From assembly GCA_004431415.1 (NCBI GenBank), contig QPMI01000029.1, forward strand, positions 186,001-250,000: a stretch of DNA of 64,000 nt. The letters run 5' to 3'. The position numbers were made by a program, and so were the translations under genes. This DNA comes from Cyanophora paradoxa CCMP329. Lineage: Eukaryota > Plantae > Glaucophyta. Shown here one piece after another: positions 21,281-44,666 of this stretch; the stretch's first letter is position 1, and the number at the start of each line of letters is the position of its first letter. The notes beneath the pieces are model-generated. The model did no database searches, was not told the origin of the DNA, and saw only the letters and a list, made by a program, of their open reading frames with translations.

Positions 21281-21890
21281 GAAAATAATTCACTCGTTAC
21301 TGCATTATGTCCAATTAAACAATCGATGAAATATCGGATGAAAATAATTCACTCGTTACTGCATTATGTCCAATTAAACAATCGATGAGATTGCGGCGTA
21401 TTTTGTTGGATTAGATGGTTACTGCATTATGTCCAATTAAACAATCGATGAGATATCGGATGAAAATAATTCACTCGTTACTGCATTATGTCCAATTAAA
21501 CAATCGATGAAATATCGGATGAAAATAATTCACTCGTTACTGCATTATGTCCAATTAAACAATCGATGAGATATCGGATGAAAATAATTCACTCGTTACT
21601 GCATTATGTCCAATTAAACAATCGTTGAGATTGCGGCGTATTTTGTTGGAAGAGATGGTTACTGCATTATGTCAAATTAAACAATCGATGAGATTCGGGT
21701 AAGATTTTTACTGTATCAAAATTGACCCCAGAGTTGCATTATGTCCAATTAAACAATTGATAAGATTGGATTCTGTTTTTTACTGTAAAAACATTGTATC
21801 TTAGGTGTATCAATCTCAATTGAATTAATCGATGTAATTTTGTTGGAAGAGATGGTTACAGCATTATGTCCAATTAAACAATCGATGAGA
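21281..21890. repeat. Sub-terminal array: about 9 copies of TGCATTATGTCCAATTAAACAATCGATGA with recurring linkers
   Basis: Core starts near 21301, 21360, 21423, 21482, 21541, 21600, 21663, 21735 and 21860. Mirrored at 47820-48407. Confidence 0.9.
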
Positions 21891-21911
21891 TTTCGCTGAG
21901 ATGAAAACGGT

Positions 21912-22281
21912 TAGGCACTTTTTTATCGTGATCGGCGGATATCATTTAGATATAAAACGGGCTACTGAAATGGAGCGGGTTAATCGAAGTAGGCACTTTT
22001 TTTAATCGCGGTAGGCGGCGTAGGCGCGTTAGGCACTTCCTAATCGAGAATTAAAAAGAAGTCCCAAATACATCAACTTGTGTTTTTCAAAACGTTGATT
22101 TTATTTTTTATAGAGAGTTTCCAGAAAAGGTGCCTAAGTGCCTAACGTCAATTGAAAGTGCCTAACTTCAATTAAAAAGTGCCTAACTTCAATTAAAAAG
22201 TGCCTACCAAACGATATTCAGTGAGAGAAATAGAGATATGATATATTCACTTTCATTATCTGAGAAATATAAAGTGCCTAC
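21912..22281. promoter_or_regulatory. Putative iteron origin of element A in the left TIR (TAGGCACT / AGTGCCTA arms)
   Basis: TAGGCACT copies face multiple AGTGCCTA copies (several at about 21-bp spacing) across an AT-rich core. Origin function is inferred. Confidence 0.6.
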
Positions 22282-22300
22282 CAAACCATTAACAGTGTGA

Positions 22301-22699
22301 TTAACTCGGAAATCGCGCTGCTATCTGCTTCTCCGCTTTCTCCAACCCTGAAAAGATCTCTGTTATTCTCTCATCTATCAATTGTGATATTACTGAGGTC
22401 TTACTTTGCGCTTCCAATCCACAAGTGAATACATCAATTGCTAACATTCCTTGATCAGAGTAACAATGAGCGGTTAAATGGCTCTCATCGAGAAGTAATA
22501 CCATCGCAAAACCGGGTGGCGAAACTCCACCATCGAAAATCTCGCAATGCTTGTGAACAACTCGGATACCTTGTTCTTGAATAATAGATTGAAAAAATTG
22601 CATTAACCACTTCGTTGTGGTGTCTATGTTGTCCAATCCCACCATCAATGGATGATTGAACTTGTAATCCAACATTACATGGAAACCGCGATGATTCAT
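22301..22699 (-). CDS. Pyruvoyl-dependent S-adenosylmethionine decarboxylase proenzyme (prokaryotic SpeD/SpeH-like)
   Basis: GFHVMLDY...HCEIF...PPGFAMVLLLDESHLTAHCYSDQGMLAIDVFTCG: ESH self-cleavage motif and DxFTCG motif, 132 aa. Confidence 0.88.
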   Translation of the reverse strand: MNHRGFHVMLDYKFNHPLMVGLDNIDTTTKWLMQFFQSIIQEQGIRVVHKHCEIFDGGVSPPGFAMVLLLDESHLTAHCYSDQGMLAIDVFTCGLEAQSKTSVISQLIDERITEIFSGLEKAEKQIAARFPS

Positions 22700-22739
22700 T
22701 TATGAATTATATAGAAAAATTAAAAACGAAATTAGTAGG

Positions 22740-22889
22740 ATGCGAACCATCTTAGCGAAAGTGTTTCCGTATGAGTTGGTCGATATCATAATGCTCCATT
22801 ATCATAAGACATGTCCGAATTGCTTCGATACTTGCATAATCATCAAAGGTAAATGCGGAAAGATGCTCATTTCTCTTTCGAAACTCTAA
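22740..22889 (+). CDS. Possible 49-aa Cys-rich micro-protein
   Basis: Manual translation MRTILAKVFPYELVDIIMLHYHKTCPNCFDTCIIIKGKCGKMLISLSKL fills the gap between two genes. Confidence 0.3.
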   Translation: MRTILAKVFPYELVDIIMLHYHKTCPNCFDTCIIIKGKCGKMLISLSKL

Positions 22890-23158
22890 TCAAAATACAA
22901 CATAACCGGTTTCTCTTCTATGACTATTCCCCATGTTGTTCTTTTTCTGTATGCATGAGAGTGTTTCTTAGAACACTGTCGGCAACCTGACCCCTTAATG
23001 TGATTAAATCCGTAAGTTAGGAACGTCTTATTACATTGTAGGCATCTAACAGTTACCTTTTCTTGCGCTTTCTTATAAACAGTGTCGCTATAATCAAATT
23101 TATCCTTACCATGGACTGACATAGCGGTATCTATAAACTTTCTTGTTTTTTCATCCAT
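22886..23158 (-). CDS. Zn-ribbon (DUF723-like) putative DNA-binding protein
   Basis: FIDTAMSVHGKDKFDYSDTVY...VRCLQC..F....NHIKGSGCRQC matches the repeat seen in NCLDV and phage endonuclease-associated proteins. Confidence 0.7.
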   Translation of the reverse strand: MDEKTRKFIDTAMSVHGKDKFDYSDTVYKKAQEKVTVRCLQCNKTFLTYGFNHIKGSGCRQCSKKHSHAYRKRTTWGIVIEEKPVMLYFD

Positions 23159-23178
23159 TCCCTATATATACCTTAGAT

Positions 23179-24024
23179 TTATGGTTGTGGATCGCTACCG
23201 CCGATGGGATTGTATAGATTGGTATTTAGATATTGACCAAATCGGTTAGCTGTTGCGATTGCGTCGTTTCTTTCGGCATACATAATTACTCTATAATTTC
23301 CGAGTTGTGTAGCTCTTATTATAAATTGGTTATCTTGTGTATCTAAAAGAGGTATTGAATGAAACGCTTGACCGAAATTATCTATGGGGATAATGTGTAT
23401 CGTTAGGCGCGGTCTTGCTCCGTCGGTTCTTCTACATAATGCATAGATGTCCTCAGGTATCGTGTCTCTATATCTATAATGATTTCCTAACGGTTCTAAA
23501 ACATCGGCTACCGCTGTTTGTAAACTAATAACGATTGTATAAATCTTAATAATATACGGCTCATTCATACCTGGGCAATACGTCCTAATACGTGTGTTTT
23601 CATCATCGGGGTTTGGTTGGTCATTTACGATTAGAGGCGCTCCGATGATACCACCGACCCTTAGTCCGTCCCCAATGTAAGCGCCTCCGGATCTACATTT
23701 AATCGCTCCGTTTCTCGATTCATAAGCAAAGTTTGTTACCTTGTTATCATCATTATAACTGTCAGGATCTCCATAAAAAGCGTTAAAGTTTGCATTTGTA
23801 ACAAGAAGTTTCGTAGTTTTCACAATTCCGTTATTTTTGTCACATCGTAACTCTTTCAGTCGCAATTTATGCGTATCACCAAAAGTATTAAGAGTAGGTG
23901 CAAGTTCGGTAGATTCGAGACCATCGACATTATCGATAACAGCATGTTGTAATACGTGATTTGCCGGCGCGGCTAATGAAAGTTGCGCTGTTAAAATACG
24001 CTCAGGAGGTGCGGGTGCCGCCAT
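23179..24024 (-). CDS. Fibre-like protein 1 (shared N-terminal module)
   Basis: KELRCDKNNGIVKTT...RSGGAYIGDG shared with three neighbours. The C-terminus ends in a fibre-type MYAERND motif. Confidence 0.6.
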   Translation of the reverse strand: MAAPAPPERILTAQLSLAAPANHVLQHAVIDNVDGLESTELAPTLNTFGDTHKLRLKELRCDKNNGIVKTTKLLVTNANFNAFYGDPDSYNDDNKVTNFAYESRNGAIKCRSGGAYIGDGLRVGGIIGAPLIVNDQPNPDDENTRIRTYCPGMNEPYIIKIYTIVISLQTAVADVLEPLGNHYRYRDTIPEDIYALCRRTDGARPRLTIHIIPIDNFGQAFHSIPLLDTQDNQFIIRATQLGNYRVIMYAERNDAIATANRFGQYLNTNLYNPIGGSDPQP

Positions 24025-24043
24025 TTAATATATTAAAACATAA

Positions 24044-24886
24044 TTATGGTGTGGGATCACCTGGGAACGGATCATCGTAGAAGTTATTTAGGTTGTTATC
24101 GGGATTGAGACCACGTGTAGCCGCCACAGCGGCTGGATCTGTTCGCATTCCGAAAATGAGAATATCGTAACCTCCTACTTCTGTTGTCCAAACATTAAAC
24201 GTAGCGGGGTTTTGATTATCAAACTCCACCCAACCTCTACCGCGTCCGATTCCCTGAACAAAGAAAGTATAAGCTGGACCGATAATACCATTTTGTGAAC
24301 GACATATAGACTCAATAGATTTAGGAATAGCAATATTTGGTAATAACCAATTTCCCAAAATTCCATCGGGTTGTGTTGCATTTACGTTATCTACCCCAAC
24401 TCTGACCATTCCAAACACATATGGATAGTCTCCACATGGAGTATACATACGGATACGTTGCGGATTGTCCGCATGCTCAGGTAGAGTATCGGGAATATCG
24501 GTAACAGCAACGGAAGATGCAAGCATACCCGACACACGACAACCGCCGCCAATAACAGCGCCTCCTGATCGGACAACAGCGGCGGCACGTTCTCCGTCAA
24601 AATCTAACGTTCTAATATCCACACCCCATGCGTCAGGTTGCCCGATTCCCGCGTTAAAATTCGCATTTGTTACAAGAAGTTGAGTCGTTTTAACCACTCC
24701 CGAATTCTTGTCGGCGCGTAGTTCTTTCACACGTATCATGCTGTTTTTATCAAATGCATTCGCGGAGTTAGCGCGCTCCGTAGATTCCACACCGCGAATT
24801 TCGTCGGCTACCTCGTGTTGTCGAAAGTGAACGGCGGGCGATCCCAAAGCGTAAACTGGTAATTGCACACGATTATATTCGCCCAT
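24044..24886 (-). CDS. Fibre-like protein 2 (shared N-terminal module)
   Basis: KELRADKNSGVVKTT...RSGGAVIGGG; full-length paralog of protein 1. Likely start MGEYNRV at 24886. Confidence 0.6.
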   Translation of the reverse strand: MGEYNRVQLPVYALGSPAVHFRQHEVADEIRGVESTERANSANAFDKNSMIRVKELRADKNSGVVKTTQLLVTNANFNAGIGQPDAWGVDIRTLDFDGERAAAVVRSGGAVIGGGCRVSGMLASSVAVTDIPDTLPEHADNPQRIRMYTPCGDYPYVFGMVRVGVDNVNATQPDGILGNWLLPNIAIPKSIESICRSQNGIIGPAYTFFVQGIGRGRGWVEFDNQNPATFNVWTTEVGGYDILIFGMRTDPAAVAATRGLNPDNNLNNFYDDPFPGDPTP

Positions 24887-24921
24887 TGCTTCTTTTACTA
24901 AGAAGGAAAGAAAAATAATGT

Positions 24922-25188
24922 TCACAGCTCTTCTGTGACATTGTTATACTCAATTGCTTTCTTCACAGTTCCCCTTTGGAATGCCTGTAATACAATCGCT
25001 TCCTTTGAGGTTGGTATTTGAACTCCACCTGAGATGCAAGAATGGATTTCTTTCTGAACAATTTCTTCAATTGCAATCCTTGCTCTGTTGTGGGCAGCAT
25101 TATCGATCCAATCCTGAACAGAGGCGGCGCAATATTCCATTCCCAACATTTCGATATCAGTAAGAACCACTTGGTAAATATTCGACAT
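24922..25188 (-). CDS. 88-aa phage-like protein, possible fibre companion
   Basis: QDWIDNAAHNRARIAIEEIV...IPTSKEAIVLQAF resembles, from memory, a small protein found beside C1q fibre genes in aquatic tailed phages. Confidence 0.5.
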   Translation of the reverse strand: MSNIYQVVLTDIEMLGMEYCAASVQDWIDNAAHNRARIAIEEIVQKEIHSCISGGVQIPTSKEAIVLQAFQRGTVKKAIEYNNVTEEL

Positions 25189-25210
25189 TTCCTAAATTAC
25201 CATAAGAAAA

Positions 25211-26230
25211 TTATACGATGCTTATTAATTCACCTGAAAATCCTGTTTGACTTGCATAGGAAGCGCCTGAATTTGTAACAAGTGTCACATATTCGTTTTG
25301 GGCAAGATTGAGAATGCAAGAGAAACAAAGTGCTTTATTTGTTGCTGACACACTGTTAACTTGGGATATGCTCCATCCCCCAGGATCAGCATCATTCACC
25401 CTTACAAATAATCCAATTGCAGAGGTTGTGGTTGAAAAAGTGAATACTGAAAATCGATAGTGTCCTGCAACAGGTGCTGTGAACCTTCCAGTTGATGTGC
25501 TGAATGAATTGGTATTGTTTACTCGAACTGTTGCCCAGTTTATTAGATCAGCAGAAGTTGTAGCAGTGTGGTTGTAGCCAAGTTGAACTGAAAATCGTGG
25601 ATGTGATGTTTTGAGATAACACCCTGTATTAACTGTCAAACTATTCGCTTCCAGAGTAACAACAGTGTTACTATTTCGTTTCAGGAGAAGGTCTACATTG
25701 GCTCCTGTATCGATTTCTGGTGTAACAACCTTGTTTGTTGCTGTGATTGTAGCCTGTGAGGAAATTGGTAGTGAAATACCAGCATTTGCTGTTACCAATC
25801 CTGTAAAGGTGCTTGTTCCTGTAATACTTACCTGATTTGCTGTAAGGGTTCCATCAATTCTCGCCCCATCTCCAATGTAGGCACCTCCACTTCTCACAAC
25901 AAGAGCAGAGTTATTAATTGTATTGTCAAAGGTTACTATTTTGGGTGTGGTGACCCCTCCTACATCATCATATATTGTGGAATCTGAGACTATCTGACCT
26001 GATTGAACTTGGTTTTTGTTTGAAACTATTAAACCTGTGGTTCTCACCTTGCCCCCATTGCGATCACATCGAATTTCTTTGCATCTGATCACAGAGTTTT
26101 GAGAAAACGAATCGGCTCCTGTCGTTTCAGTGCAAATAAAACCAGGGGTTGCATCTGTTACTGTGTGATTGAGTTGATGTAATTTTGGGGCGGCATAACA
26201 GAAAACAGGGACAGCTATTTGAGTGGTCAT
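25211..26230 (-). CDS. Fibre-like protein 3 with C-terminal C1q-like domain
   Basis: Shared N module (KEIRCDRNGGKVRTT, RSGGAYIGDG), plus NNTNSFSTSTGRFTAPVAGHYRFS and a terminal FSGELI (C1q signature). Confidence 0.75.
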   Translation of the reverse strand: MTTQIAVPVFCYAAPKLHQLNHTVTDATPGFICTETTGADSFSQNSVIRCKEIRCDRNGGKVRTTGLIVSNKNQVQSGQIVSDSTIYDDVGGVTTPKIVTFDNTINNSALVVRSGGAYIGDGARIDGTLTANQVSITGTSTFTGLVTANAGISLPISSQATITATNKVVTPEIDTGANVDLLLKRNSNTVVTLEANSLTVNTGCYLKTSHPRFSVQLGYNHTATTSADLINWATVRVNNTNSFSTSTGRFTAPVAGHYRFSVFTFSTTTSAIGLFVRVNDADPGGWSISQVNSVSATNKALCFSCILNLAQNEYVTLVTNSGASYASQTGFSGELISIV

Positions 26231-26252
26231 ACTTTACATTATGTGGATAATA

Positions 26253-27329
26253 TTATGAAGAGCTGAGAAGCATACATCCGAAGAAAAATCTGACATTATA
26301 TTCTATATTACCAGCATCATTAGAAGCAATAGTTAAAGAGAGACCATCATTAGCTTCAAGGCTTACAATAATCTCAAACCCATTATGAGCATACACAGTT
26401 GATTTATTTAAAGTTGTAACCTCAACTCCAAATGAGCTTCCATTCTTCCGTAAGAAGGTAGTGATTATTCCATTTCTTCGAGTATCAGGAATAAAAAAGA
26501 ATCCACTGAATGAGACTAAATAGTTACCGGAAACAGGTGCGGTAAAAAGCCCTGTTGTGGTATTGAAATGATTTCCATTGTTGACTATCGCATAAAAGGA
26601 TTCGGTTAGAATGTAACGAAATGTTTCAGTTATTGACCCATTTGGTTGCTGTTTTGTTGCAAAGAAACGAGGATGGCTACTTAATTTGAGATATTTGCTT
26701 GTCGGAAGTGTGAGATGTTGAACAGTTGTGTTATCTGTCTGAATAGTTTTTTGAAGAGAAAGAATGGTATCCCCATTCCTCTTGTAATTCATGACTGTGT
26801 CACTCATGTTGTCAATCTCAGGTGTATTTATTCTTGTTGTAAGTGTGAGAGTTCCATACTGAATACTCCCTGAAAGCCCACCATTAAAGGTCATCAATCC
26901 TGCAAATGAACATGTCCCACTCACAGTCAATTGATTTGCTGTCAGAGTTCCTGCTACATTTGCTCCATCACCAATGTAGGCTCCTCCACTCTTGACTACA
27001 AGAGCGGAAGTATTGCTTGTATTACCAAAAGTAACTATCTGTGCTGTGGTGACTCCACCCACATTATCATATATTGCTGAATTCGGGACTACCTGACCTG
27101 CTTGAACTTGGTTTTTATTCGAGATTATAATGCCTGTGGTTCTAATCTTGCCTCCATTTCGATCACATCGAATTTCTTTCGCTCTGAGTATATTGTCCTG
27201 TGTGAAAGAAGTATTGCTTGATGTTTCAGTGCATATATTCCCGGGTGTAGAGTCGACTACTTCATGAGAAGTGCTATGAAGTGATTTGGCTGCAAGTTCA
27301 TAGTTTGGGATTTCTAAAAGGGAGGTCAT
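26253..27329 (-). CDS. Fibre-like protein 4 with C-terminal C1q-like domain
   Basis: Shared N module, plus NNGNHFNTTTGLFTAPVSGNYLVSF...LEANDGL...FFGCML. Likely start MTSLLEIP at 27329. Confidence 0.75.
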   Translation of the reverse strand: MTSLLEIPNYELAAKSLHSTSHEVVDSTPGNICTETSSNTSFTQDNILRAKEIRCDRNGGKIRTTGIIISNKNQVQAGQVVPNSAIYDNVGGVTTAQIVTFGNTSNTSALVVKSGGAYIGDGANVAGTLTANQLTVSGTCSFAGLMTFNGGLSGSIQYGTLTLTTRINTPEIDNMSDTVMNYKRNGDTILSLQKTIQTDNTTVQHLTLPTSKYLKLSSHPRFFATKQQPNGSITETFRYILTESFYAIVNNGNHFNTTTGLFTAPVSGNYLVSFSGFFFIPDTRRNGIITTFLRKNGSSFGVEVTTLNKSTVYAHNGFEIIVSLEANDGLSLTIASNDAGNIEYNVRFFFGCMLLSSS

Positions 27330-27348
27330 CTTTATAATTACGAAATAG

Positions 27349-30300
27349 TTAAATTGCGACAGCAATGTAATGAATTGTAACTGGAAATCCTGGTCTGTCA
27401 AAAGAACTTAATGGAACTATGTCAAGCTCACAAGTGAAATAGCTACTGTAAACTTGTTTAAGCCTAACATACATTCGATAGTAGTAGGCTGTCTCATTGT
27501 GTTGTATACCAGTTGTTACAATAGGAGGGTTAGCAAAGCTGCTGTTGAAATTAATAGTGAGGTTAAACCTATGGTCAGGATTTGCCCAAAGATAAGGAGT
27601 AGTGTAAACATACGTTCCTGCTTGGATTTTCCCATTAAAATATGCATTGAGTTGACTGGAAAGATCTGCCTCTGTAATACATCGACTGATGGTCGCATTA
27701 TTTGAGGGTTCATAGCATAGAAATTTCTTGCATAGGCATTTCCACGAACAAGTAAGGTTTTATCAAAGTAATTCTGCGAATTGTGGAAGAACCATGTTTC
27801 TTCAAACATAGGTCCTGCTGGTTCTACAATCTGACCTGATCCTACATACATTGTGTTGTTGGCTCTGATTGTGGTGGCTGTGAAAGGATCAAGAGTTGGT
27901 CTATTGGTCAAATCATTGTAGTTTCCTGAGAAAATTGCAGGTTTGTTATAGATATCTGTATTCCAATCATGAGTATGTGCAAAATCTGTAATCTCTGCCT
28001 TAGTGTGGGTGTGACCTACATATGCAACATTTCCAAGATCTGTAATCTCTGCCTTGGTATGGGTGTGACCAACATATGCAACATTTCCGAGATCTAATAT
28101 CTCTGATTTAACATGAGTGTGAGCGAAATTAGTAATATCTGCTCGGGTATGGGTGTGTGCAAAATCTGTGATTTGGGATTTGGTGTGAGTGTGTGCAAAA
28201 TCTGTGATTTCTGCCTTTGTATGGGTGTGTGATCTATTATTAAGATCGAGGAAGCTACCCGAAAATGCAACAGGGTGTAGATTTGCTGCGGTGGGTTTGT
28301 TTATGAGATCATTATAATCTCCTGTGAATGAAATAGTTTTTAGTTCACCCCTTCCTACATAGTCAGACGGGAGATCAATCTTAATGGGCATAATAGCTGG
28401 ATCATTAGGTATCTCATACTCACTTCCTGGGTGGACAACAGGAAACGTTTGATTACATTCAGTATGGACAAAAAAGTTGCATGCTGTTACTGTTCCATCA
28501 ATAATCCCACCTGTTAGAGGAAGGTAATCACCTGTCACACCAATATTGATGCCTGCAATAATCGTATTTAATTCGGTTTCATCTATGTAGTTTTGGGCTT
28601 GTAGGTAATCTTCTGTTACCACTCTCGAAATAGTTTCATTATGAATGTTTTTCGCTGAGGCTCTCTGATTGATTTCTAAAACTCCCTCACCAACTCCACC
28701 ATTATAATTTGTTTTGATCCATGCAATCTCACATTGTTTGTAGTCATCTCGGTTTCCTAAAAGTGTTTCTGCTGCGAGTTGTTCGCGACTGAATATTAAT
28801 TTTGGTCTTGATCCGTCTAAATCGCTTACATTAGTCACATTAATTTGGATTGCTGCGTTTTTATCATCGTAGTTTGCTGGATCAGATGGTAGAGAAATTA
28901 AACCTCCTGTCATTGGGATGTCATCGGCATAGTAATTGGTAAGATAGATTCCCGGTTTTGTGTCTTTGATTGCAATACCACCACCAAGTGGTAATATTAC
29001 ATTTCTTGTGGGTGGTCGAATGTATAATTCGCCTTCCATTGTGGTGCCTGCATCTATTCCCCTGCGATTTACGTAGTAATCGTTTAATTGTAATCTTTCT
29101 GGTGTGTCTATGTTTTGGTAGAGACTCACACCATTGTTAATATCTCCTAATAATACATTTCCTGCTGATGCAAAAGAAGGCTGTTGTCTTACTTCACTCC
29201 AAATATGTAAATGGTCTTCTGGTGGAAACTCTCCTGGTATTCCATCAATTTCGTCCCAATGATGGCGATGCTCTGTGGGCGGAAATCTTTCCGGTTTGTT
29301 TAAAATGTCTTCCCATTCGTGTTCGTGTGGATCTGGTGGAAATGTTTCGGGTTTGTTAATAATATCCCTCCAATCTACGGTAAAATCGAAAAAACCCGGC
29401 TGTAATCCGTCTGGTAATAACTCTTCATCTGGTATATGTGGTTGTTCGTAATCTATGTTAGGTGGATTTAATCCATCTGGTAAAAGTTGTTCATCGAAAG
29501 GTTCGTAACGATCATATAACATATGGTTAGGATCAAATCCATCCGGCAATTCTTCCACGTCTTCACATTCTTTATGTTCGAGAGGGATTACATTAATATC
29601 TGGTGCTAAGAGTTCCTCAGCGGGCGGTTTGTAATCTTTAAAAACTGGTTTATTATAAACTTTTTCCCAACTTACTAAATGCTGCCCAAACGCCACCGTT
29701 TCATCCGCTGTGTATTCTCTTCCTGGTTGTTTCTTTGGTGTGAGATCTGGTGGATCCCATGGTAACGGAAATGGAACGGGAACAGGTCCGTAATGTTCAA
29801 ATATTTCTCTTATCGTTTTCTCACTAACAAGTTTCTCGCCATTTGCATACACGTTGCTACCGTGAATATTTCGCCACTGTCGGGTTCTAATACCAAGATC
29901 TTTTGTGTTTGAAAACAAAGGTAGTAAATGTCGATCCATTTCGACAAGATCGGGATGTAAATGTATCGCTACTGGTTGAGTGGGACTACTATTTACGGTT
30001 ATTGATGGTTTTTTTTCATGAACGTCTTTCGGAGTAAAGAATCCAAAAGGTTCATTTCTCGCAAAATCATAAGTAATGTCTTTTGGATAAACATTATTTG
30101 TGATACATACTTGATTTGCATTAGGAAAAGAACCTATTTGTAAGATTTCTGATGACTCGACAATTGGTGTGCTGCCTTCATTATAAATTCTGAGACCTGT
30201 ATTTTGTTTACCTTTCTCATCCTGAACATTAAATACTAATCGCCCGCTATCGAAACGTGTCGGAATATCGGGATGGGTTTTACTTGTTTTAAGTTTTCGT

Positions 30301-30566
30301 TGTCTTCTTGTTGCTTTAATTTCGGCAACTTCATTTTTTTTAACATTACCCAAACTGAAAGCAATGCTAACATCTTCTTTATCGGGATCCGTTTGATTCA
30401 GTGATAAAGCATGAATTCTGGAATGCGTCTTACTGGGTTTATCGGCGCTCTGATCGATAGAAGCCGATCCTTTGATGGTGATATTATCGAAATTCACATG
30501 TTTAGGGTTTGTTTTACCACCACTTCCTGATATTGTTTGTAAATTTGCTGGATAATTGAAACTCAT
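27349..30566 (-). CDS. Large fibre protein (about 1070 aa) with HxH repeats and a C-terminal H-type-lectin-like domain; 1 frameshift near 27700
   Basis: HTHTKAEITDF repeats, HEHEWEDILNKP, YLPLTGG, FSGNYNDLTNRP. An alternate frame from about 27700 reads ...TINFNSSFANPPIVTT...TIHYIAVAI* and stops at 27349. Confidence 0.75.
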
Positions 30567-30615
30567 CCCTGGTTACTCTACATATAGAGATTTATTAAAT
30601 TCCGATAAAGTAAAG

Positions 30616-32172
30616 ATGCCTCAGAAATTCGTTTTAGCGTTGTCGGGCGGCGGTGCGCGTGGTATTATCATAACAAGGTTACTAACAGAAATTGAAAATA
30701 GAACTCGAAGACGTATAATAAATCTTGTCGATCTTGTAAGCGGAACATCCACAGGTGGTATAATTGCGATTGGGTTAAATATCAGACATCCTGAGATGCC
30801 CAATGAACCAAAACTAACAGCTAACGATTTGCATAATATTTATCTTACACAGTTACCGTTAATTTTTGCGAATCCGCGAAATATCATTGAAAATGCCCTT
30901 TTCAATACAAAATACGATGCTACACCACTGGAAAGTGCGATTTATTCAGTAACTGGTGAATCACTCATAAGAGATTCTCTAAAAGACATTGTGATTACAT
31001 CTTTTGATACTCAATATATGAAACCAATATTTATCACAAACGATAACAAATACAATTTTTTGCCGAATAAAATAGTAGCGCGTGCTACATCTGCTGCTCC
31101 AACATACTTTTCACCTGTTAGCATTGTAGATTTCAATAATGGCGTAATTGCTTCTCTGATTGATGGCGCAATTTCAGGAAACAATAACCCAAGTGTATGC
31201 GGTTATAGTCATGCAAAAAAGATTTATAATGAAGATGATGAAATTATAGTTATAAGTATATCTTGTGGTGAGGTTGATGCAAATTTAGAATCTGAATATT
31301 TCGGATATGCTTATGAGACTGTGAATAGCTGGGGTATTCTTTCATGGATTGCTTCAACAGAAGGAAGCCCATTAATTAATATGCTAATGGCTGCAAGCGA
31401 ACTATCCGCTCTTGATAAAATGGAAGAATTACTACCTCCAAATCTTGACCAAGGATATAATAGATATTTCCGTCTTTCTGTTCCGCTTCCAAATGATATA
31501 GTTCGATCACTTGATGATACATCTAAGATACCTGAAATGCTCGCATTCACTGAAACGTATATTGCTGCAAATGACGCTATGATAAATAGACTCTGTGATT
31601 TACTTGTAACAAATTATGAGATTAATAACCCTGTCAGATCGTATATATCTTCCACTCTTAATAACATACCTCCCATTGACGCTAATTGGTATCTTCTGTC
31701 AGATAATGCGTTTACCGCTTCGTCTGCGAAATTTGGAAAGGAGGCATTTAAAGCCCGCCCATCATTAACTGGATGGGAAGCGAATGCATCCGCAATTAAC
31801 GGAGTATGGGAAACGCCAACAGAATATCTGCAAATAGCATTCCCATATACATATGAGATCGCTTCGATAATTGCTTATGGTTCAGGTATAACGGCTGCGT
31901 TTATTAAGACTTTCAATGTTGCGACGTCGCAAGATGGGGTTTCATGGTCATATATCAAGTATGAAGGTGTGAATAGAATGTTTGTATGTGAGAATATAAA
32001 TAATGCTAATAACTCTGGGGATGTATCATATAACGGGGGCTTTCCGCTTGCAATAAACGATGTTTTCTATATAGGTTTCCCACTGAGAACAAGATATATA
32101 CGAATATATCCGCTGGTATATATAAATGCTCCGACTATGAGAGTCGATGTGACGGGCGCATTTATACGGTAG
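30616..32172 (+). CDS. Patatin-like phospholipase fused to a discoidin (F5/8 type C) domain
   Basis: SGGGARG, GTSTG, ATSAAPTYF, DGA motifs. C-terminal EYLQIAF...SQDGVSW...TRYIRIYP...MRVDV. Likely start MPQKF. Confidence 0.88.
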   Translation: MPQKFVLALSGGGARGIIITRLLTEIENRTRRRIINLVDLVSGTSTGGIIAIGLNIRHPEMPNEPKLTANDLHNIYLTQLPLIFANPRNIIENALFNTKYDATPLESAIYSVTGESLIRDSLKDIVITSFDTQYMKPIFITNDNKYNFLPNKIVARATSAAPTYFSPVSIVDFNNGVIASLIDGAISGNNNPSVCGYSHAKKIYNEDDEIIVISISCGEVDANLESEYFGYAYETVNSWGILSWIASTEGSPLINMLMAASELSALDKMEELLPPNLDQGYNRYFRLSVPLPNDIVRSLDDTSKIPEMLAFTETYIAANDAMINRLCDLLVTNYEINNPVRSYISSTLNNIPPIDANWYLLSDNAFTASSAKFGKEAFKARPSLTGWEANASAINGVWETPTEYLQIAFPYTYEIASIIAYGSGITAAFIKTFNVATSQDGVSWSYIKYEGVNRMFVCENINNANNSGDVSYNGGFPLAINDVFYIGFPLRTRYIRIYPLVYINAPTMRVDVTGAFIR

Positions 32173-32385
32173 AAAAAAGAGGGAATTTTTTCCGATTTTT
32201 TGATTATATATATGTATATGTATATATAATAATATTATTTATTATGTTTTCCAAACATTTTTTTCTTGGTCACACGGCATTACGGAGGTTTGGTATATAT
32301 TGTGTATATATGTCGTGACGCCACGTGTTCGAAAACGTCGACGTCACGTGTTCACAAACGTCACGTGTTCGGGTCGCTGTGACTC

Positions 32386-32642
32386 GCTGATCGAATCAGT
32401 TCGATTGCTGATCCAATCAGCTCGATTGCTGATCCAATCAGTTCGATTGCTGATCGAATCAGCTCGATTGGTGATCCAATCAGCTCGATTGCTGATCGAA
32501 TCAGTTCGATTGCTGATCCAATCAGCTCGATTGCTGATCCAATCAGCTCGATTGCTGATCCAATCAGTTCGATTGCTGATCGAATCAGCTGATCCAATCA
32601 GCTCGATTGCTGATCGAATCAGCTCGATTGCTGATCCATTGC
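32386..32642. repeat. 21-bp tandem array TGATC(C/G)AATCAG(C/T)TCGATTGC, about 12 copies
   Basis: Directly visible between the convergent patatin and integrase genes, preceded by three CACGTGTTC. Confidence 0.92.
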
Positions 32643-32824
32643 GTGTTCGCGGCATGCCCCACAGTAGGGACTTTTTAATTTTCCACCAAATTATTTAATT
32701 GTGGGTTCCGGAACCCAAAAATCCCCCCAAAATCATACAAACTGTTATAACTCTTCACCAACTCATCGCCTATCAAAACCGCGACCATCGCCGGAATCCT
32801 CTTTGCATGCTCTACACAGCTTCG

Positions 32825-34225
32825 TTACTTTCGCGAACCGGATCTTAGATTTACCCGGGTTTGAGGTGCTGAATATGTCTCTTTTGAGGTCTGGAAGTCT
32901 GTATACCATCTCTGGCTGTTGACTTCTGATAGTTTCTGGGTTCCTGCTATGGTTAACTTCTTTAATTCGCGTTCCGCCTTCCCTTTCTTCTTGGTTCTGG
33001 CTTGTGTTAACGGTTCTTCTGGGACGTCATCCGCTTTTTCGATGCCTTCCTTGCGAATCGCCGAATCGACCCGGGCTTCTTCTTTCGCTTGTTCCAGTGC
33101 ATCCACTGTGGGCGCTTCGTGGTATTCAACACCTTTGATAGGTAACAGTTCGTGGAAAGCGAATCTCCCTTCGACCATTTCGCCGTTCGGGTTTCGCAAC
33201 CGAAACTTGAAACCCTCCCGACCTTCAACAGTATAGACAATTCGCGACCAATTGACACCTTGTTTAGCGAATGGGTTCTTTTCTATTCTCACTCTCACAA
33301 ACATTCCCTGTTTCACACCATCCAAGTAAGCGATCGACTTCTTGAACCTCTCATCTTCTAAACCTATAATCTCTCTATAATGATCTTCCGTGGTCTCTGC
33401 TGGTTTTCTCTTAGTTGCTGAGTGGATGGTATTGTTATAGTTATACTCTATGTCTCCCAATACATCGAAGAATCGCGCTGTGTTGTTTGCTATGCAATAG
33501 TTCGTGATCAATCGTTTGATCTGCTTGTTAAACGCTTCGATTCTACCTTGGCTTCGATGATCTGCGACATCGCTAATCTGGTGGTCTATGAACTTCTTAG
33601 CAAGGTAATTTGTGAACATCGTATTAGTGAATTCGCTTCCGCTGTCACTCTGAACGCGAGCGATAGGTCGTGGAACTCTTCGTTGTAACTGTTCAAACGC
33701 CGCAAGTGCCGTAAGAGCGCTCTTATCTCTCATCGGAATGATGTAACCGGTGCGTAAGGTCGATTCCATCGCGGACATGAACGTATCGTAACCGTCGTTT
33801 TGGTTCTTGTATGCAGGGAAAAAGAGAAGATCGATTACGTAAGTATCGAGAGGTTGCCGAATCGGAATCATCGGGTCTCTCTTTCTTGAAAGAGTCGGTG
33901 CGTTTATCTGAACGACTTCCTGTTTATCATACCATTCTCTCATCTTCTTGTAATCCTCCTCTGGTAGTTCCTTTCTCATTGCTCCGAATCCCTTGTAACC
34001 TGTGCGCGGATCGTAAAACTTCTTCGCGATCTTCGATTCTTTTGTTACAGTCTCAGTAGGCAATGCCTTCGGGATCAGTTGTTTAACCATCTCAGACTTC
34101 TTTAAGATTCGTGTGTTCTTCTCTTCGACCGGAATAGTGATTGGTAGCATGTTCCCTTGGTCTTCTTTCATGCTCTTCTTTACGATTTTAGGAACAGGTC
34201 GCAATCCTATCTGTGCTGAGGGCAT
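32825..34225 (-). CDS. Retroviral-like (rve, DDE) integrase
   Basis: IDLLF, QSDSGSEF, GRIEAFNK catalytic triad and YNNTIHSAT; intact, 466 aa. Confidence 0.93.
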   Translation of the reverse strand: MPSAQIGLRPVPKIVKKSMKEDQGNMLPITIPVEEKNTRILKKSEMVKQLIPKALPTETVTKESKIAKKFYDPRTGYKGFGAMRKELPEEDYKKMREWYDKQEVVQINAPTLSRKRDPMIPIRQPLDTYVIDLLFFPAYKNQNDGYDTFMSAMESTLRTGYIIPMRDKSALTALAAFEQLQRRVPRPIARVQSDSGSEFTNTMFTNYLAKKFIDHQISDVADHRSQGRIEAFNKQIKRLITNYCIANNTARFFDVLGDIEYNYNNTIHSATKRKPAETTEDHYREIIGLEDERFKKSIAYLDGVKQGMFVRVRIEKNPFAKQGVNWSRIVYTVEGREGFKFRLRNPNGEMVEGRFAFHELLPIKGVEYHEAPTVDALEQAKEEARVDSAIRKEGIEKADDVPEEPLTQARTKKKGKAERELKKLTIAGTQKLSEVNSQRWYTDFQTSKETYSAPQTRVNLRSGSRK

Positions 34226-34410
34226 CTTTACTTTATTTTCAATATATTAATAATGGACGAGCCGGTTTGGACAGAACACCCGAAACCAAACTACTTTGCG
34301 ATCGATCCAAATGATCCTGGTTTAAGGTGCATATGGTTGTTACATCTGATCCGAGGTTTGCTGCTTCTTGGGGATCGAAAAAATAAAAAGAGAAGTATTG
34401 AACAAGTATA

Positions 34411-37400
34411 TTAAAGACCAAATGGAATGCTGTGAATGCCGTCGGCTGATATCTTCCGTTTGCTATCGAGTTGGTTTAGAGCGACCCTTCTGCTCTCCAA
34501 GTCATATAAGTTGTGGTCTTGCCTTCGCTTGTTTGTTACTGATACTGTTTTTATGATGCCTTCAAACAGACATCTCTTAAAGTCGTCAAAATGAACCTCC
34601 TTCGAGGAAGTCCCCGACATCTTTACTCTTTCGTTGGTCTCAGTTCTGAAAGCATAGAGTTTCGATCTCAGACCCACATACTCCATGATCTTTGCATTTG
34701 GAAACTCATTCTTATATTTACCAGGAACCATGCGGTTTTTGATACTCACGAGAGGATGGGATTTATCGTAATTGCTCCTATCGAGATACTCACCTATCTC
34801 TTTCATATCTTCATTGAGATTATTTGTTTTCAAGAACAAACAGAACGAATCGGTATCGTGGAACAGTAGTTTGGCGGTTTCCCACTTCTTCCTTACCACA
34901 TCATAGAAGAATCGATAATTATGGAGTTTCGCGAAATCCAAAACGAAAGCGCCAATTGCTACGGGTTTATCTAAATTAACATGCTTCGAATACATCTCGA
35001 AGGCAACTGCGTTTTCGTTTAATACATTGGTCGCCTTGATAAGCGGACTTGCTGCGTATTTCTTACAGAGTTTCTCACTGTTAGCGATCTTGACAGTTGA
35101 GCGACCCCTGCAAGATTCCAAGCATTTACCATAAATCGCATTGTTCATTAGTTTAAAGAAGTCGCTTTCGAAATGGTTGGTAGATTCGTGCCTGAGTAGA
35201 GTATTCAGACCAATGTAAGATCTCATGAATGGGGAGGTAGCGAATGAGAGAACTTTATGTATCTTTTTTAGAATGACACCCTTTTTAACGATGTAGTTAA
35301 GAAGAGGTCGAGCAATCACGTATTTATTCTTGGGCGTAAATGTCGCCGTAAGTTTGGGGTCTTTGCTGATCTTTTCGCCCGTCAGATCTAATAGTTTATT
35401 TTGATAATCACCAAGCATCTCATTGGTTATCACTTCTTTATTCACAATCAGTGGGAAATCGTAATGATCTTCAAGAGTTGTGGGGTATTCAAGATCAACT
35501 TCAATAAATGCGCTTCGTCCCTCTACCTCTTTAAGTGCCTCTGTGATGTCTTCCCATCGATAATCTCCGATGGGTAGTGGTTGACTGAGAGCATAACCAT
35601 AAAGATTATTCGCATCCAACAATACTATATGATCGTCGGCATTCTCTACCTTTGCGTATCGTGTGGGCATGGTAGCAAATCCACCTCTAATGGCTCTCTC
35701 AACAAATTCGTATTTCTCTACATCATCGATTAGTTCAATCTTAACTTTCGTATGTTTGAGCATAGCGTCCCAAGAGAGACCCGGTGCGCTAACGTAATGT
35801 GCGGGATCCAATCCGTATTGAGAAAACGCCAATTTGCGGAATGCTTCAAACTTTCTCATTAAATCACCCACATCCACAGATTGGAAATCCATGAAATGGG
35901 AAGCATCAATGAACTTCCACATGCCCCATTGAAGCGACAGGTATTGATCGAAATTCTTGCTTAGAATCTCAACACGTAGTTTATCGTCTTGTTGGGCGAT
36001 TTTGCGGAATATTCCATGCCCGCATTCATCCATGTGATCGACCACGATAGCTACCTTTGTTTGTTTAGAGATTCGCCGGTGGAGGTTACAGTTTCGGCAT
36101 GCCTTTCCGATGAAATCGCCGGATTGGTGACAATGATCGCGAACCGGGAAGTTTTCGTGGGTGAATCTCTGAGAGCAAATATAACAGTGTTTTGTTATCT
36201 TGTATTCCGCCTTCTGATCGTCTGTGAGTGGATGCATCGGAATATTTCTAAACAGCGTTTCAACGATTTCGGGTCTGATATCTTGGAGAGTAGCAAAGAG
36301 AGAACCAAGTGGATCGGTTCCCTCGAAATGGTATGCTCTCACTTCGAGTCCCATTACCACTCTCAGTGAAACCGCTTTAATCTCACGTTTACTCCTCTGA
36401 GCATCGATAGCAACTGAATGATCTTCAACTTTAACATAACAGATCACAGGAAGCCACACGGTTTTACGTAGATGTTGCAGACCGAATTCAATTACGCTTC
36501 CCGCTTTCGGGCATTTGCCTTTGCTCTCCCTCCAATCAATGCAGCGATTCGCTTCAATATGCAGGTCTAATTTCTCCTGAGTTCTAAAACGAGACAGACA
36601 GGTTTCACAGTAATAAATGCGACCATCACATGCTTTATCAAACGTAGTTTTCAGAAGACGACTAAAAGACATGATAGTGATGTAGTGTCCCCGATCATCT
36701 TCGGTGTTTTCGATAAGTAAAAGGTTTATCTTGGTCTTTCTCCTTGGGTTACTTGATTGATGGAGAGGAAAGAAACACTCTTTGGCGTTATCGGCTCCGT
36801 AAATGTTAATAGATAGATCGGGGTTCAGTTCTTCGAATCGATCGATTACCTCAGCATCACATGCAACGGGAAACTGAATACCATCGAAATTGAGTTCATT
36901 TAACCATCGGCGGTATTGGTTCGGTTCGTTGCTCTTGTGTTTGTTAATGTCCTTTCGATGCAGGTAAGCCAAAATCGCATACTTGAAGCAATCTTGACCG
37001 TCGATATTCTTAACGTTCACCGTTGCCTTCTTGGATGCGATCCATTCGGGAGTTGCGAAAAAACAACCACCCACAGGTGCGTATGACATGATTACACCTC
37101 TTAAAATTTCGATCTTCTCTAAACGGTAACTATCCACTTGCGTCATCTCCTCTTGCATTTTCTGTAACGCTTTGCGAACTTCTGTGTCTATGTTGCGGGA
37201 TCGGGTAATTACGAAATAATCGCTGTAAATGAATTTGGTGATATAGATGCGCGGATTACCTACTTTGGTAAATTTGCAAACGAAAGTCAGACGGACTTTA
37301 ACGGCTCTCAGTTGATCTAAGCGGGTTCTAATGCGTTGCGGTAGACTTGGTGCGATTCTTTCGAGAAATTCGATAGCATCCACGACAACTTCGTTTCGGG

Positions 37401-37692
37401 CGCGATAGGTTAACCACGAATACGCTTGATTCATTGCTTGACCATCTTCAATATCCGGTTCAATTGCTCCTAATCTCTGTCCTTCATCCATAAACTCCTC
37501 CATTCTCTGCATGCGATCGTAGAGGTCATTTGCAATCTCAGTGAGTTGACCTAATCGCGGTCGTCTATCTAAGATGGCGGCTTCTCTATCATATTCCGCT
37601 TCGGTGATCTCACCTGTAACTAAGAGAGTTCCTAACAATCCAAGTATTTCATTTTTCTTTTCTTTGATCAGTCTGTTCGTTTGGCGGGGCAT
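34411..37692 (-). CDS. Protein-primed family B DNA polymerase (terminal protein region, vOTU-like domain, Zn finger, EndoVII-like insert)
   Basis: LLDANNLYG, KLMNNAIYGK, HDTDS, KLYAF; DCFKYAIL...GHY; CETC...H; VRDHCHQSG...CRNCN. Intact, 1093 aa. Confidence 0.95.
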   Translation of the reverse strand: MPRQTNRLIKEKKNEILGLLGTLLVTGEITEAEYDREAAILDRRPRLGQLTEIANDLYDRMQRMEEFMDEGQRLGAIEPDIEDGQAMNQAYSWLTYRARNEVVVDAIEFLERIAPSLPQRIRTRLDQLRAVKVRLTFVCKFTKVGNPRIYITKFIYSDYFVITRSRNIDTEVRKALQKMQEEMTQVDSYRLEKIEILRGVIMSYAPVGGCFFATPEWIASKKATVNVKNIDGQDCFKYAILAYLHRKDINKHKSNEPNQYRRWLNELNFDGIQFPVACDAEVIDRFEELNPDLSINIYGADNAKECFFPLHQSSNPRRKTKINLLLIENTEDDRGHYITIMSFSRLLKTTFDKACDGRIYYCETCLSRFRTQEKLDLHIEANRCIDWRESKGKCPKAGSVIEFGLQHLRKTVWLPVICYVKVEDHSVAIDAQRSKREIKAVSLRVVMGLEVRAYHFEGTDPLGSLFATLQDIRPEIVETLFRNIPMHPLTDDQKAEYKITKHCYICSQRFTHENFPVRDHCHQSGDFIGKACRNCNLHRRISKQTKVAIVVDHMDECGHGIFRKIAQQDDKLRVEILSKNFDQYLSLQWGMWKFIDASHFMDFQSVDVGDLMRKFEAFRKLAFSQYGLDPAHYVSAPGLSWDAMLKHTKVKIELIDDVEKYEFVERAIRGGFATMPTRYAKVENADDHIVLLDANNLYGYALSQPLPIGDYRWEDITEALKEVEGRSAFIEVDLEYPTTLEDHYDFPLIVNKEVITNEMLGDYQNKLLDLTGEKISKDPKLTATFTPKNKYVIARPLLNYIVKKGVILKKIHKVLSFATSPFMRSYIGLNTLLRHESTNHFESDFFKLMNNAIYGKCLESCRGRSTVKIANSEKLCKKYAASPLIKATNVLNENAVAFEMYSKHVNLDKPVAIGAFVLDFAKLHNYRFFYDVVRKKWETAKLLFHDTDSFCLFLKTNNLNEDMKEIGEYLDRSNYDKSHPLVSIKNRMVPGKYKNEFPNAKIMEYVGLRSKLYAFRTETNERVKMSGTSSKEVHFDDFKRCLFEGIIKTVSVTNKRRQDHNLYDLESRRVALNQLDSKRKISADGIHSIPFGL

Positions 37693-37713
37693 CTTTGCTA
37701 TAAAGGAACATTT

Positions 37714-38022
37714 TTATTTTGGATTTTGAACGCGTTTTGAAAGTTTATCTTGAAGTCGCTTTCGTGCATGGTTCACATCATGGCGACCCTGTCCCGCTCT
37801 CATTTCCTCGAAATCATTTGCGCACTGGTGGCCTCTTCCATTTTCGCAGTATCTATCTAATTTCTTTCTGAAATGCCTGGGCATCTGATCATATTTACAT
37901 CCTCCTTTCTCCAAGATCAACCGAAGCACTTTTTTTCTTTGCTCTGCATCTGTCAGAACTGGATCAGATCCAAAGCATTCATGATTGAGTCGGGCGAAAT
38001 CTTCTTTTGAGAATGTGGTCAT
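37714..38022 (-). CDS. Hypothetical protein (102 aa)
   Basis: Clean ORF in the gene-dense run, with AAAAAATGAC upstream. Confidence 0.6.
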   Translation of the reverse strand: MTTFSKEDFARLNHECFGSDPVLTDAEQRKKVLRLILEKGGCKYDQMPRHFRKKLDRYCENGRGHQCANDFEEMRAGQGRHDVNHARKRLQDKLSKRVQNPK

Positions 38023-38066
38023 TGTGGTGCTCTTGGATCACATCTCTGAAATCGCGTCATTTTTTG

Positions 38067-38262
38067 TAGGCGCTTGTAGGCAGTTAGGCACTTCTTAATC
38101 GAGAATTAAAAAGAAGTCCCAAATACATCAACTTGTGTTTTTCAAAACGTTGATTTTATTTTTTATAGAGAGTTTCCAGGAAAGGTGCCTAAGTGCCTAA
38201 CGTCAATTAAAAGTGCCTAACCTCAATTGAAAAGTGCCTACTTCAATTATTCAAGTGCCTAC
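38067..38262. promoter_or_regulatory. Internal copy of the element A iteron block directly downstream of the helicase gene
   Basis: About 180 bp near-identical to 22028-22208, about 65 bp after the helicase stop at 38327. Confidence 0.65.
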
Positions 38263-38326
38263 TGTCCATTTCCAGTAAGGTATAAAAAAGAATGTATATA
38301 GAAATCAGAATCATAACAGAAGTATT

Positions 38327-40721: not shown

Positions 40722-40920
40722 CTTGGGGTCTTCTTATACTTAATGGAGAAAAGAGTTTCTCCGGATTCCTGTCATTTTTTGGCGGCTAACCTTTAAGTGG
40801 TTGATATCTCTTCAATTACCAAAAACGGCAATCGGGAGATGGTATGGGATCTATCGAAGCATATCGATAGACCGCTCGAAAAATGAGTAATTGGGTTCAG
40901 CGGTCAAATGGGTATTTCCC

Positions 40921-41157
40921 TTAATACTTTCGTGGACGTCCCCGCGACTTGTTTTCGATTCCCTCCCGCTCCTTACGACGATAATATGAAGCGAGCGATT
41001 GCGCCTTCTTATACTCCCGATAAACCGGGTCTTCGTTGTAGAGCGTTCGCTTCCTGAGAGCATCTCTCATCTTGTAATTGGCGCGGGTCTCATCTTCTTC
41101 ATCAACAAATTCTATTACACTCACCGTATCTTCGGTAATATGAATTACTGTCTCCAT
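40921..41157 (-). CDS. Small basic protein with a C-terminal AT-hook
   Basis: Ends KSRGRPRKY. Confidence 0.6.
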   Translation of the reverse strand: METVIHITEDTVSVIEFVDEEDETRANYKMRDALRKRTLYNEDPVYREYKKAQSLASYYRRKEREGIENKSRGRPRKY

Positions 41158-41365
41158 GTTCCACTTTATATATAGTTGAGAAAATCTTTTACCACTCTGT
41201 ATTATGCGTTACGTCTTTAAGTATTTTATGGCGTCATTTTTTGGTGACCAAAGCCAGTTGGTGTCTACGTTCTTCAATTGCAGATTTAACAGCGTAAATC
41301 CTTCGTTTCGATAGTATGATGGAGTAGATCTCTTCGAGTGACATTTGATACCATAACCAAAGATA

Positions 41366-41587
41366 TTATTTATGATCGTTTTGCGCAAACGATCGGCGAC
41401 GGACAGTCTCAGTTTCCGTAACGGTGACTGTCTCAGTTGTTATCGAATCTTGTGATTGCCTTCGCCCTCCATCGCTTTCACCATCTGAGAAATCCATTTC
41501 GAATTTCGTATCGCAGCAGTCATTATGACAATCGGTTACGCAATGCATCTCAAACATCTCAATGATCTTTTTCAGAAACTCCATCAA
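41366..41587 (-). CDS. Hypothetical protein (73 aa)
   Basis: Compact ORF in the co-oriented run. Confidence 0.5.
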   Translation of the reverse strand: MMEFLKKIIEMFEMHCVTDCHNDCCDTKFEMDFSDGESDGGRRQSQDSITTETVTVTETETVRRRSFAQNDHK

Positions 41588-41610
41588 TTTCCTCTAATAA
41601 ACAGAGAAAT

Positions 41611-42342: not shown

Positions 42343-42370
42343 TGTATATTTATAACATACAGAGATAATT

Positions 42371-43153: not shown

Positions 43154-43214
43154 GGCGTAGTAGATCTTTCTTAATAAAGATAGATAAAAATAACGAAATC
43201 TTACTGATAATGGT

Positions 43215-44612: not shown

Positions 44613-44666
44613 TCTGTTTTGCTTTTACTATACAAAAATATAAAAATTCTGTGAATGATCCTTAAT

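Follow-up and report, generated by a model that had tools for sequence, protein, structure and literature searches.

The locus and its surroundings

The window, that is the whole 64-kb stretch of DNA analysed, contains a Polinton-like endogenous virus with a gene for a small decarboxylase proenzyme at its left end (Table 1). GC content is about 40% in the element and about 64% in the host flanks. The element carries the features that define Polinton-like or MELD-type elements, namely TIRs, a double-jelly-roll capsid protein, an A32 ATPase, an integrase (by a weak match) and a length within 14-40 kb. A further defining feature, a short target-site duplication with two complete ends, is lacking.

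Table 1. Features of the Polinton-like element (positions in the window)
Feature	Position	Strand	Basis or remark
Polinton-like endogenous virus, ~27.5 kb, ~40% GC	21281..48789		GC, TIRs, gene content
Left TIR with 59/63-bp subrepeats and decarboxylase 3' codons	21301..22407		repeat comparison
SpeD-fold pyruvoyl decarboxylase proenzyme, probable SpeDA clade	22301..22699	-	profile, PDB, model, trees, motifs
Fibre/attachment cluster: two paralogous ~280-aa ORFs, two C1q-domain ORFs, 1016-aa PTR-repeat protein	23179..30566	-	
Patatin-like phospholipase fused to F5/8 (discoidin) domain	30616..32172	+	Pfam
rve-type integrase	32825..34225	-	Pfam E = 4e-4, weaker than gathering cut-off
Protein-primed PolB-like gene with endonuclease VII-like insert	34411..37692	-	motifs by eye; no Pfam match
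Primase/helicase region, three ORFs (147, 360, 290 aa)	38327..40721	-	
A32-type packaging ATPase	42371..43528	-	Pfam
Major capsid protein, double-jelly-roll-like	43215..44612	-	Atlas look-alikes
Two ORFs: 334 aa (-), 300 aa (+)	44667..46602		no profile match
Right TIR with start-less decarboxylase copy	47303..48407		repeat comparison
85-nt near-perfect terminal hairpin abutting host junction	48705..48789		z = -9.5

The two TIRs are 99.7% identical. The left one takes in the final 36 codons of the decarboxylase gene, and the right one holds an identical copy of codons 98-132 that has no start codon. The left end of the element is without the outer 380 bp or so that the right end has. An AT-rich stretch (48408-48704), absent at the left end, precedes the right-end hairpin, and the hairpin itself may be the true terminus of the element or a replication origin. 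A 200-bp TIR segment located 3' of the decarboxylase gene (22011-22207) recurs at 93% identity downstream of the helicase genes (38066-38262). The recurring segment carries a repeated short motif and is possibly a transcription terminator or a regulatory site. A 21-bp tandem array (32344-32687) lies between the patatin and integrase genes.

The capsid protein has a sole sequence homolog, EukProt protein P0158 (57% identity). The label of P0158 has the format used for Cyanophora paradoxa, and in view also of the PTR fibres and discoidin domains known from glaucophyte PLVs, the host is likely a glaucophyte. A minority of the members of its Atlas look-alikes (0.97-0.98) carry Capsid_N or Capsid_NCLDV, and the recognition score is below threshold. 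From their position, and from their sequence as judged by eye, the two ORFs beyond the capsid gene are likely minor capsid proteins. The primase-helicase region may be split or frameshifted.

The element sits in a GC-rich host tandem array and breaks one of its units. Its flanks are a 738-bp direct duplication (20543-21280 and 48790-49526) of the 2.68-kb host unit, which may have arisen when array units recombined or may come from the assembly. This host unit appears to be transcribed. An RNA-type contig matches host sequence at 21000-21280, skipping 21041-21107 in an intron-like manner, and runs on into sequence seen at 15923, 18600, and 49527. The decarboxylase ORF is covered by no contig in three RNA-type runs, a result that says nothing either way about its expression. 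In addition, a 3.9-kb host segment is duplicated at 96% identity on either side of the insertion region (10040-13852 and 58210-62162).

Positions 1-9900 of the window hold a decayed related element with many breaks, in which a pPolB (3919-7077), an integrase (7122-8439) and helicase fragments can be recognised. Between 3919 and 8439 the observed/expected ratio of CpG is 0.21, against 1.20 in the intact genes, and TpG and CpA are in excess. This CpG depletion suggests that old insertions decay through methylation. Repressive CpG methylation of viral genes has been described in the glaucophyte Cyanophora paradoxa (PMC12344493, here and below cited from extracts of the paper).

The decarboxylase and its predicted fold

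The decarboxylase gene is a complete ATG-to-stop reading frame. Its 132-aa product contains two pyruvoyl motifs, ESH at residues 72-74 and DVFTCG at residues 89-94. It scores 46.7 bits against the Pfam AdoMet_dc profile (PF02675), above the cut-off of 25, and 49.4 bits against TIGR03330, the equivalog for bona fide AdoMetDC, below the cut-off of 75.65. Sequence matches in the PDB are the class 1b proenzymes of Aquifex and Thermotoga (E ~1e-5). Ser73, His78, and Cys93 align with S63, H68, and C83 of T. maritima, the processing residues of that enzyme (PMC10407285, here and below cited from extracts). An AlphaFold model built on a 34-sequence alignment has a pLDDT of 92 and a pTM of 0.87, and the top Foldseek matches are again Thermotoga and Aquifex proenzymes (1vr7, 1tlu, and 2iii; TM ~0.65-0.67, E 3e-7 to 1e-6). 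The protein is a class 1b member of the SpeD-fold pyruvoyl decarboxylase superfamily (PF02675). Self-cleavage of the proenzyme is predicted at Glu72-Ser73, which would release beta and alpha chains of 72 and 60 aa. Splicing or fusion of the gene was considered and rejected because the ATG and stop agree with those of single-domain relatives.

A sequence-only reading of this DNA had described an intact SpeD/SpeH-like proenzyme in a small integrating virus that encodes no spermidine synthase, and each part of this description holds. Reading frame, profile match and fold agree on the proenzyme, and the TIRs, pPolB-like gene, rve integrase, A32 ATPase and double-jelly-roll-like capsid protein agree on the viral setting. 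As to partner enzymes, tblastn found no match to spermidine synthase (two queries), agmatinase or DS/SpeY in the 64-kb window, with positive controls found, and a Pfam scan of 24 element ORFs gave none of the three either.

Copies and selection

The stretch is present in 20 of the 24 runs listed, with one organism label common to all. Many variant contigs cover the decarboxylase gene, so the element is a multi-copy family. The ORF and its immediate surroundings have 52 variant sites, of which the best-supported 40 were scored. Taken singly, these 40 comprise 23 synonymous changes, 16 non-synonymous changes and one apparent stop; 30 of the 40 fall at third codon positions, and the variants listed include no indel in the ORF. 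The synonymous share (23/40) compares with 20% expected (p = 2e-7, pN/pS ~0.17), where the p value assumes independent sites and no transition bias and the sites here are non-independent. The host copies of the gene are under purifying selection.

The stop variant was discounted by hand since its depth equals that of a neighbouring change in both runs, so that the two likely sit in the same copies and form a sense codon. A pseudogene was rejected in view of the intact ORF and the purifying selection. Contamination by an archaeal contig was likewise rejected, given an element-like GC content, a gene that straddles the TIR and variation across many contigs of one organism label.

Relatives and their gene neighbourhoods

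With an E threshold of 0.001, a search of the full library returned 360 proteins (150 listed). In a set of 123 homologs, PF02675 is found in every one of the best 120, which show 33-55% identity along most of the length, and those among them with a taxon name are Poseidoniales or marine group II archaea. Relatives reach 44-50% identity to the 132-aa protein, whereas matches to canonical SpeDs are short and weak. Whole-protein BLAST gives the same contrast, with 108-127 bits to six clade members and 33-46 bits to 13 canonical-type SpeDs.

A genome scan gave 203 relatives. Of the best 80, 79 come from MAGs titled as euryarchaeal or Thermoplasmatota and one from a MAG titled as Rhodospirillaceae. 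Around these best 80 of 203 prokaryote loci, DS/SpeY (homospermidine synthase) is encoded at 80/80, speB at 24/80 and speE at 0/80. Metagenome loci are similar (DS 76/80, speE 0/80). Five MAGs, which are incomplete, each have one SpeD homolog (5/5) and no spermidine synthase (0/5). Across 15 viral loci, tblastn found no spermidine synthase, agmatinase or DS/SpeY, and the control loci were found.

Domain fusions were catalogued among 26 representative relatives. DS is fused to the decarboxylase domain in three full cases and one partial case (P0177, P0190, and P0283 among the carriers), and agmatinase in P0195. Five relatives (P0167, P0175, P0180, P0197, and P0277) carry a PQ-loop domain. PQ-loop proteins are known as cationic amino-acid transporters. 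An NNMT-type methyltransferase is fused in four relatives (P0177, P0182, P0205, and P0262) and a SET domain in two (P0191 and P0193). In all, methyltransferase domains that use SAM are fused in 6/26 relatives, which leaves a connection with SAM chemistry open. P0177 and P0182 combine a SpeDA-clade domain, an NNMT-type methyltransferase and DS. No description of PQ-loop, NNMT-type plus DS, or SET fusions of SpeDA-clade domains was found in the cited literature.

Motifs, trees and the likely substrate

SpeD homologs of Poseidoniales, MGII/III, Gimesia, Solirubrobacter, Nannochloropsis, and Tribonema have been placed in one well-supported clade, SpeDA, whose assayed members are all active on arginine and inactive on ornithine and lysine (PMC10407285). 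The same extracts describe the speB/speY arrangement of archaeal SpeDA genes, and report that two archaeal SpeDA proteins and that of Solirubrobacter do not complement E. coli speD. Does the window protein belong to this group? One mark is an Asp two residues before the pyruvoyl Ser, which 119/120 clade proteins have, as do 140/142 proteins with a parsable motif, as against 0/13 canonical ones. We infer that this Asp helps to bind the guanidinium group. Conversely, the Pro of H-x-W-P-E is absent in 120/120 clade proteins and present in 12/13 canonical ones. The canonical exception is the enzyme of phage phiYS40, a tested AdoMetDC, and so this mark is not decisive. The window protein is without the H-x-W-P Pro and keeps the Pro of F-x-P-x-G (as S-P-P-G); which of them is the "gamma" Pro of PMC10407285 is a matter of inference.

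Trees were built over about 140 columns with 140 rows (quick), 46 rows (careful) and 33 rows (LG+G4), the smaller two being subsets picked from the 140 rows, with L191-L193 added to the 33-row tree. The canonical rows include three phage enzymes tested as true AdoMetDCs (PMC9992855, here and below cited from extracts), and the assayed SpeDA proteins (DAC51064, AIF02979, and the algal ones) and identified SpeDC sequences lie outside all rows. In all three trees a long branch with full support has the window protein on its SpeDA-like side; most in-clade rows were chosen by similarity to the window protein, and long branches meet. The clade that contains it is split from the canonical SpeDs with support of 100/99 (46 rows) and 100/98 (33 rows). 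An AU test on the 33 rows does not reject joining the window protein to the canonical SpeDs (p = 0.19).

By its sequence, then, the window protein belongs to the DESH/AHCY clade. That this is also the assayed SpeDA clade is likely on the grounds of taxon, gene order and motif. On this footing, arginine is quite probably the substrate of the 132-aa enzyme.

A true class 1b AdoMetDC would instead pass dcSAM to the host spermidine synthase and so provide more spermidine for the virus, as in Heterosigma akashiwo virus and many phages. Fold and catalytic residues are the same in such enzymes, the AU test leaves room for placement with canonical SpeDs (p = 0.19), and 6/26 relatives are fused to SAM-using domains. 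Moreover, most SpeD-encoding phages are without speE, and two algal viruses have tested class 1b AdoMetDCs (PMC9992855). However, the TIGR03330 score is under the cut-off, the window protein is far closer to the SpeDA clade, its relatives adjoin speY or speB and never speE, and archaeal members of the clade failed to complement speD (PMC10407285). We regard an AdoMetDC at this locus as unlikely.

The sequence-only reading had labelled the protein an AdoMet decarboxylase. It had the family and the pyruvoyl motifs right, but a SAM-specific identity does not fit with the sub-threshold TIGR03330 score or with an arginine-active clade. Since the protein likely lies within a clade whose tested members decarboxylate arginine, the label is probably wrong. 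Ornithine and arginine had been named as alternative substrates; clade position favours arginine, and ornithine becomes unlikely insofar as the tested clade members are inactive on it (PMC10407285).

A related set of alternatives is that the gene encodes an ornithine decarboxylase (SpeDC) or a dual-substrate enzyme, or is an inactive passenger. Substrate switches are frequent in the family, and the phage UCP01 enzyme uses both arginine and ornithine (PMC9992855). Nevertheless, SpeDC, for which the criteria are four diagnostic residues (Gln, Thr, Phe, Tyr) and a single SpeDC clade, forms one separate clade, and tested members of the SpeDA clade have no ornithine activity (PMC10407285). Purifying selection on the host copies speaks against a dead gene. 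All of these alternatives together seem very unlikely.

A possible role in the infected host

The gene product is probably not a SAM decarboxylase but a pyruvoyl-dependent L-arginine decarboxylase (SpeDA) that would make agmatine on reactivation of the provirus. Upon reactivation the PLV would express the proenzyme, self-cleavage at Glu72-Ser73 would yield the pyruvoyl group, and host arginine would be decarboxylated to agmatine, as it is by tested members of the clade. Host agmatine-degrading enzymes might then convert agmatine to putrescine and raise the polyamine supply. The extra polyamines could serve DNA condensation in capsids and eIF5A-dependent translation. A 132-aa PLP-free enzyme would be a cheap entry to the polyamine route for a 27-kb genome. 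For this downstream use of agmatine in polyamine supply we put the chances at about even. Polyamine boosting, as proposed in the sequence-only reading, survives upstream in the step from arginine to agmatine, and not at the level of dcSAM.

That reading had also offered a quite different role, in which decarboxylation of SAM without a partner enzyme lowers the methyl donor, raises inhibitory dcSAM and loosens silencing of the provirus by 5mC. Eukaryote hosts have a spermidine synthase of their own to use up dcSAM, which counts against this. What fits is the lack of a spermidine synthase in the element and the apparent methylation of viral DNA by the host. The latter had been presupposed, and gains some support from CpG depletion in the decayed relative (0.21) and from PMC12344493. 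However, a methylated provirus must express the gene before any effect can occur, and the stand-alone state is typical of SpeDA genes. Draining SAM also requires SAM as substrate, and the clade evidence argues against that. The proposal is unsupported and looks highly improbable; it falls away unless SAM activity appears.

The same gene in other viruses

Scans of viral contigs with single sequences (the window protein, the capsid protein and P0161) gave no relative, whereas alignment-based scans of IMG/VR did, with nine loci and then nine more that partly overlap. At four of these loci (L178, L179, L181, and L183) the gene is closely followed downstream by an A32 ATPase gene and a capsid-like ORF. 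Judged by these genes, the four form a second PLV-like group, and their decarboxylases share 30-35% identity with the window protein. Between the window element and L179, the capsid proteins give no significant alignment. In L179 and L183, single larger proteins correspond to two of the three adjacent primase-helicase ORFs of the window element, and L183 (645-1010) encodes a small SET-domain protein.

The gene is also present on giant-virus contigs, namely L082 (RPB2, TFIIB, RNR), L083 (GVMAG), and L098 (D5, RNase III, Erv1, GH46), and on phage-like ones (L081, L180, and L182). The nearest relatives of the second PLV group are L191-L193 (60-66% identity), with which it forms a clade supported at 100/98 in the 33-row tree. 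L191-L193 look like giant viruses by their A32, MSV199, and topoisomerase II-like genes.

The window protein itself has as its sister an unplaced metagenome protein, P0160 (98/85), and the pair sits within a 14-row group (98/94) that holds giant-virus-like L098 and proteins that are eukaryotic-looking by their extensions and fusions. Going by the trees, the nearest copies are those of protists or giant viruses, with archaeal ones farther off. The gene was likely picked up from such copies rather than straight from archaea. A phylogeny to trace the donor and a survey of PLVs had been suggested; the trees point to no single donor, and the second PLV group was found.

Do the two PLV versions share one origin? 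A single origin is not rejected when the giant-virus sisters are left out (p = 0.073) and is rejected when they are included (p = 0.0003). On these trees the two versions were likely acquired independently, or else exchanged with giant viruses later on. Perhaps PLVs and giant viruses trade a pyruvoyl ADC, with at least two independent gains by PLVs, so that arginine is rerouted at reactivation and the enzyme even serves as a weapon in competition between the two. We offer this as a tentative and somewhat doubtful idea.

A separate proposal is that the enzyme acts against a co-infecting giant virus, where arginine depletion or agmatine build-up would cut giant-virus yield and protect the host population instead of helping PLV packaging. 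DNA viruses need arginine, and agmatine damps ODC, both of which would favour such an effect. The gene is found in two PLV lineages that each have close giant-virus relatives, PLVs have been proposed as antiviral elements (PMC12220804, in extracts), and the gene is kept in 42% of glaucophyte PLVs (PMC12220804 Table S6). However, giant-virus contigs (L082, L083, L098, and L191-L193) carry the same gene, which a pro-replication role fits better, and the SpeDA enzymes tested from the clade work slowly, at a kcat/Km of 20-180 per M per s. On balance an antiviral function seems distinctly unlikely. We also know of no helper virus for the window element.

Comparison with known systems

The usual view of PLVs is of minimal genomes that carry hardly any metabolic genes. 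PF02675 in PLVs is already on record. Table S6 of PMC12220804 counts it in 66/156 glaucophyte, 45/706 Rhodomonas lacustris, 10/177 Cryptomonas borealis, and 17/57 C. pyrenoidifera elements, and in 0/40 virophages. The words "decarboxylase," "AdoMet," and "polyamine" do not occur in the main text of that paper, nor does "decarboxylase" in the main text of PMC10120064, and PMC11633385 deals with a different subject, a phosphatidylserine decarboxylase. In the open-access literature, with bioRxiv supplements outside the scope, no reading of the PLV domain as an arginine decarboxylase was found, and there was no match for polyamine genes of polintons, PLVs or virophages or for the substrate-binding residues of the T. 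maritima enzyme. According to the extracts of PMC9992855, two algal viruses have true AdoMetDCs of class 1b, and the pyruvoyl ADC and ODC occur only in phages. What is new here, then, is likely a SpeDA member, as far as its sequence tells, and its occurrence in a kind of virus for which the domain had been counted in a table without being interpreted.

If the enzyme is an arginine decarboxylase, 138 PLV genes labelled "AdoMet_dc" in one table may need re-annotation. Such an enzyme would also be a small and easily assayed handle on the ways in which PLVs and the giant viruses associated with them alter the polyamine and arginine pools of the host. In the doubtful scenario of gene trading given above, it would be the first polyamine-pathway auxiliary metabolic gene of PLVs and, among eukaryotic viruses, the first pyruvoyl ADC.

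In size, fold and the Ser, His, and Cys residues the window protein resembles the SpeDA enzymes of Poseidoniales, MGII/III, Gimesia maris, Solirubrobacter, Nannochloropsis gaditana, and Tribonema minus (PMC10407285). It is 44-47% identical to Poseidoniales SpeDA homologs that lie in speB/speY clusters, and neither has a speE partner. Unlike cellular SpeDA genes, the window gene resides in a virus that integrates into a eukaryotic genome and encodes neither speB nor speY, and part of the gene lies within a TIR. Unlike archaeal SpeDA, the window protein has P0160 and giant-virus-like and protist-like copies as its nearest relatives.

The AdoMetDCs of Thermotoga maritima and Aquifex, and the viral ones of S-PM2, phiYS40, P2559S, and HaV01, share the fold (TM ~0.65), the ESH motif, the His and the Cys, but identity over whole alignments is about 19-23%. 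Where these enzymes have A/S/G/Q-E-S-H and H-T-W-P-E, the window protein has D-E-S-H and H-C-Y-S-D. Pelagiphage HTVC201P has a virus-encoded pyruvoyl ADC that, compared by description, is like the window protein in fold and chemistry (PMC9992855). It is a phage enzyme, however, and emerged separately, close to SpeDC (PMC10407285). The ADC of PBCV-1 is virus-encoded too, but PLP-dependent and of a different fold.

As for the element, glaucophyte and cryptophyte PLVs have the same morphogenetic module, rve integrase, patatin-discoidin fusion and PTR fibres (PMC12220804). The glaucophyte ones are described as bearing PTR fibres and discoidin domains that are sometimes patatin-fused (PMC12220804). 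In that paper the decarboxylase domain appears under its Pfam name alone, "AdoMet_dc," in one column of a supplementary table, whereas here it is read as a probable SpeDA.
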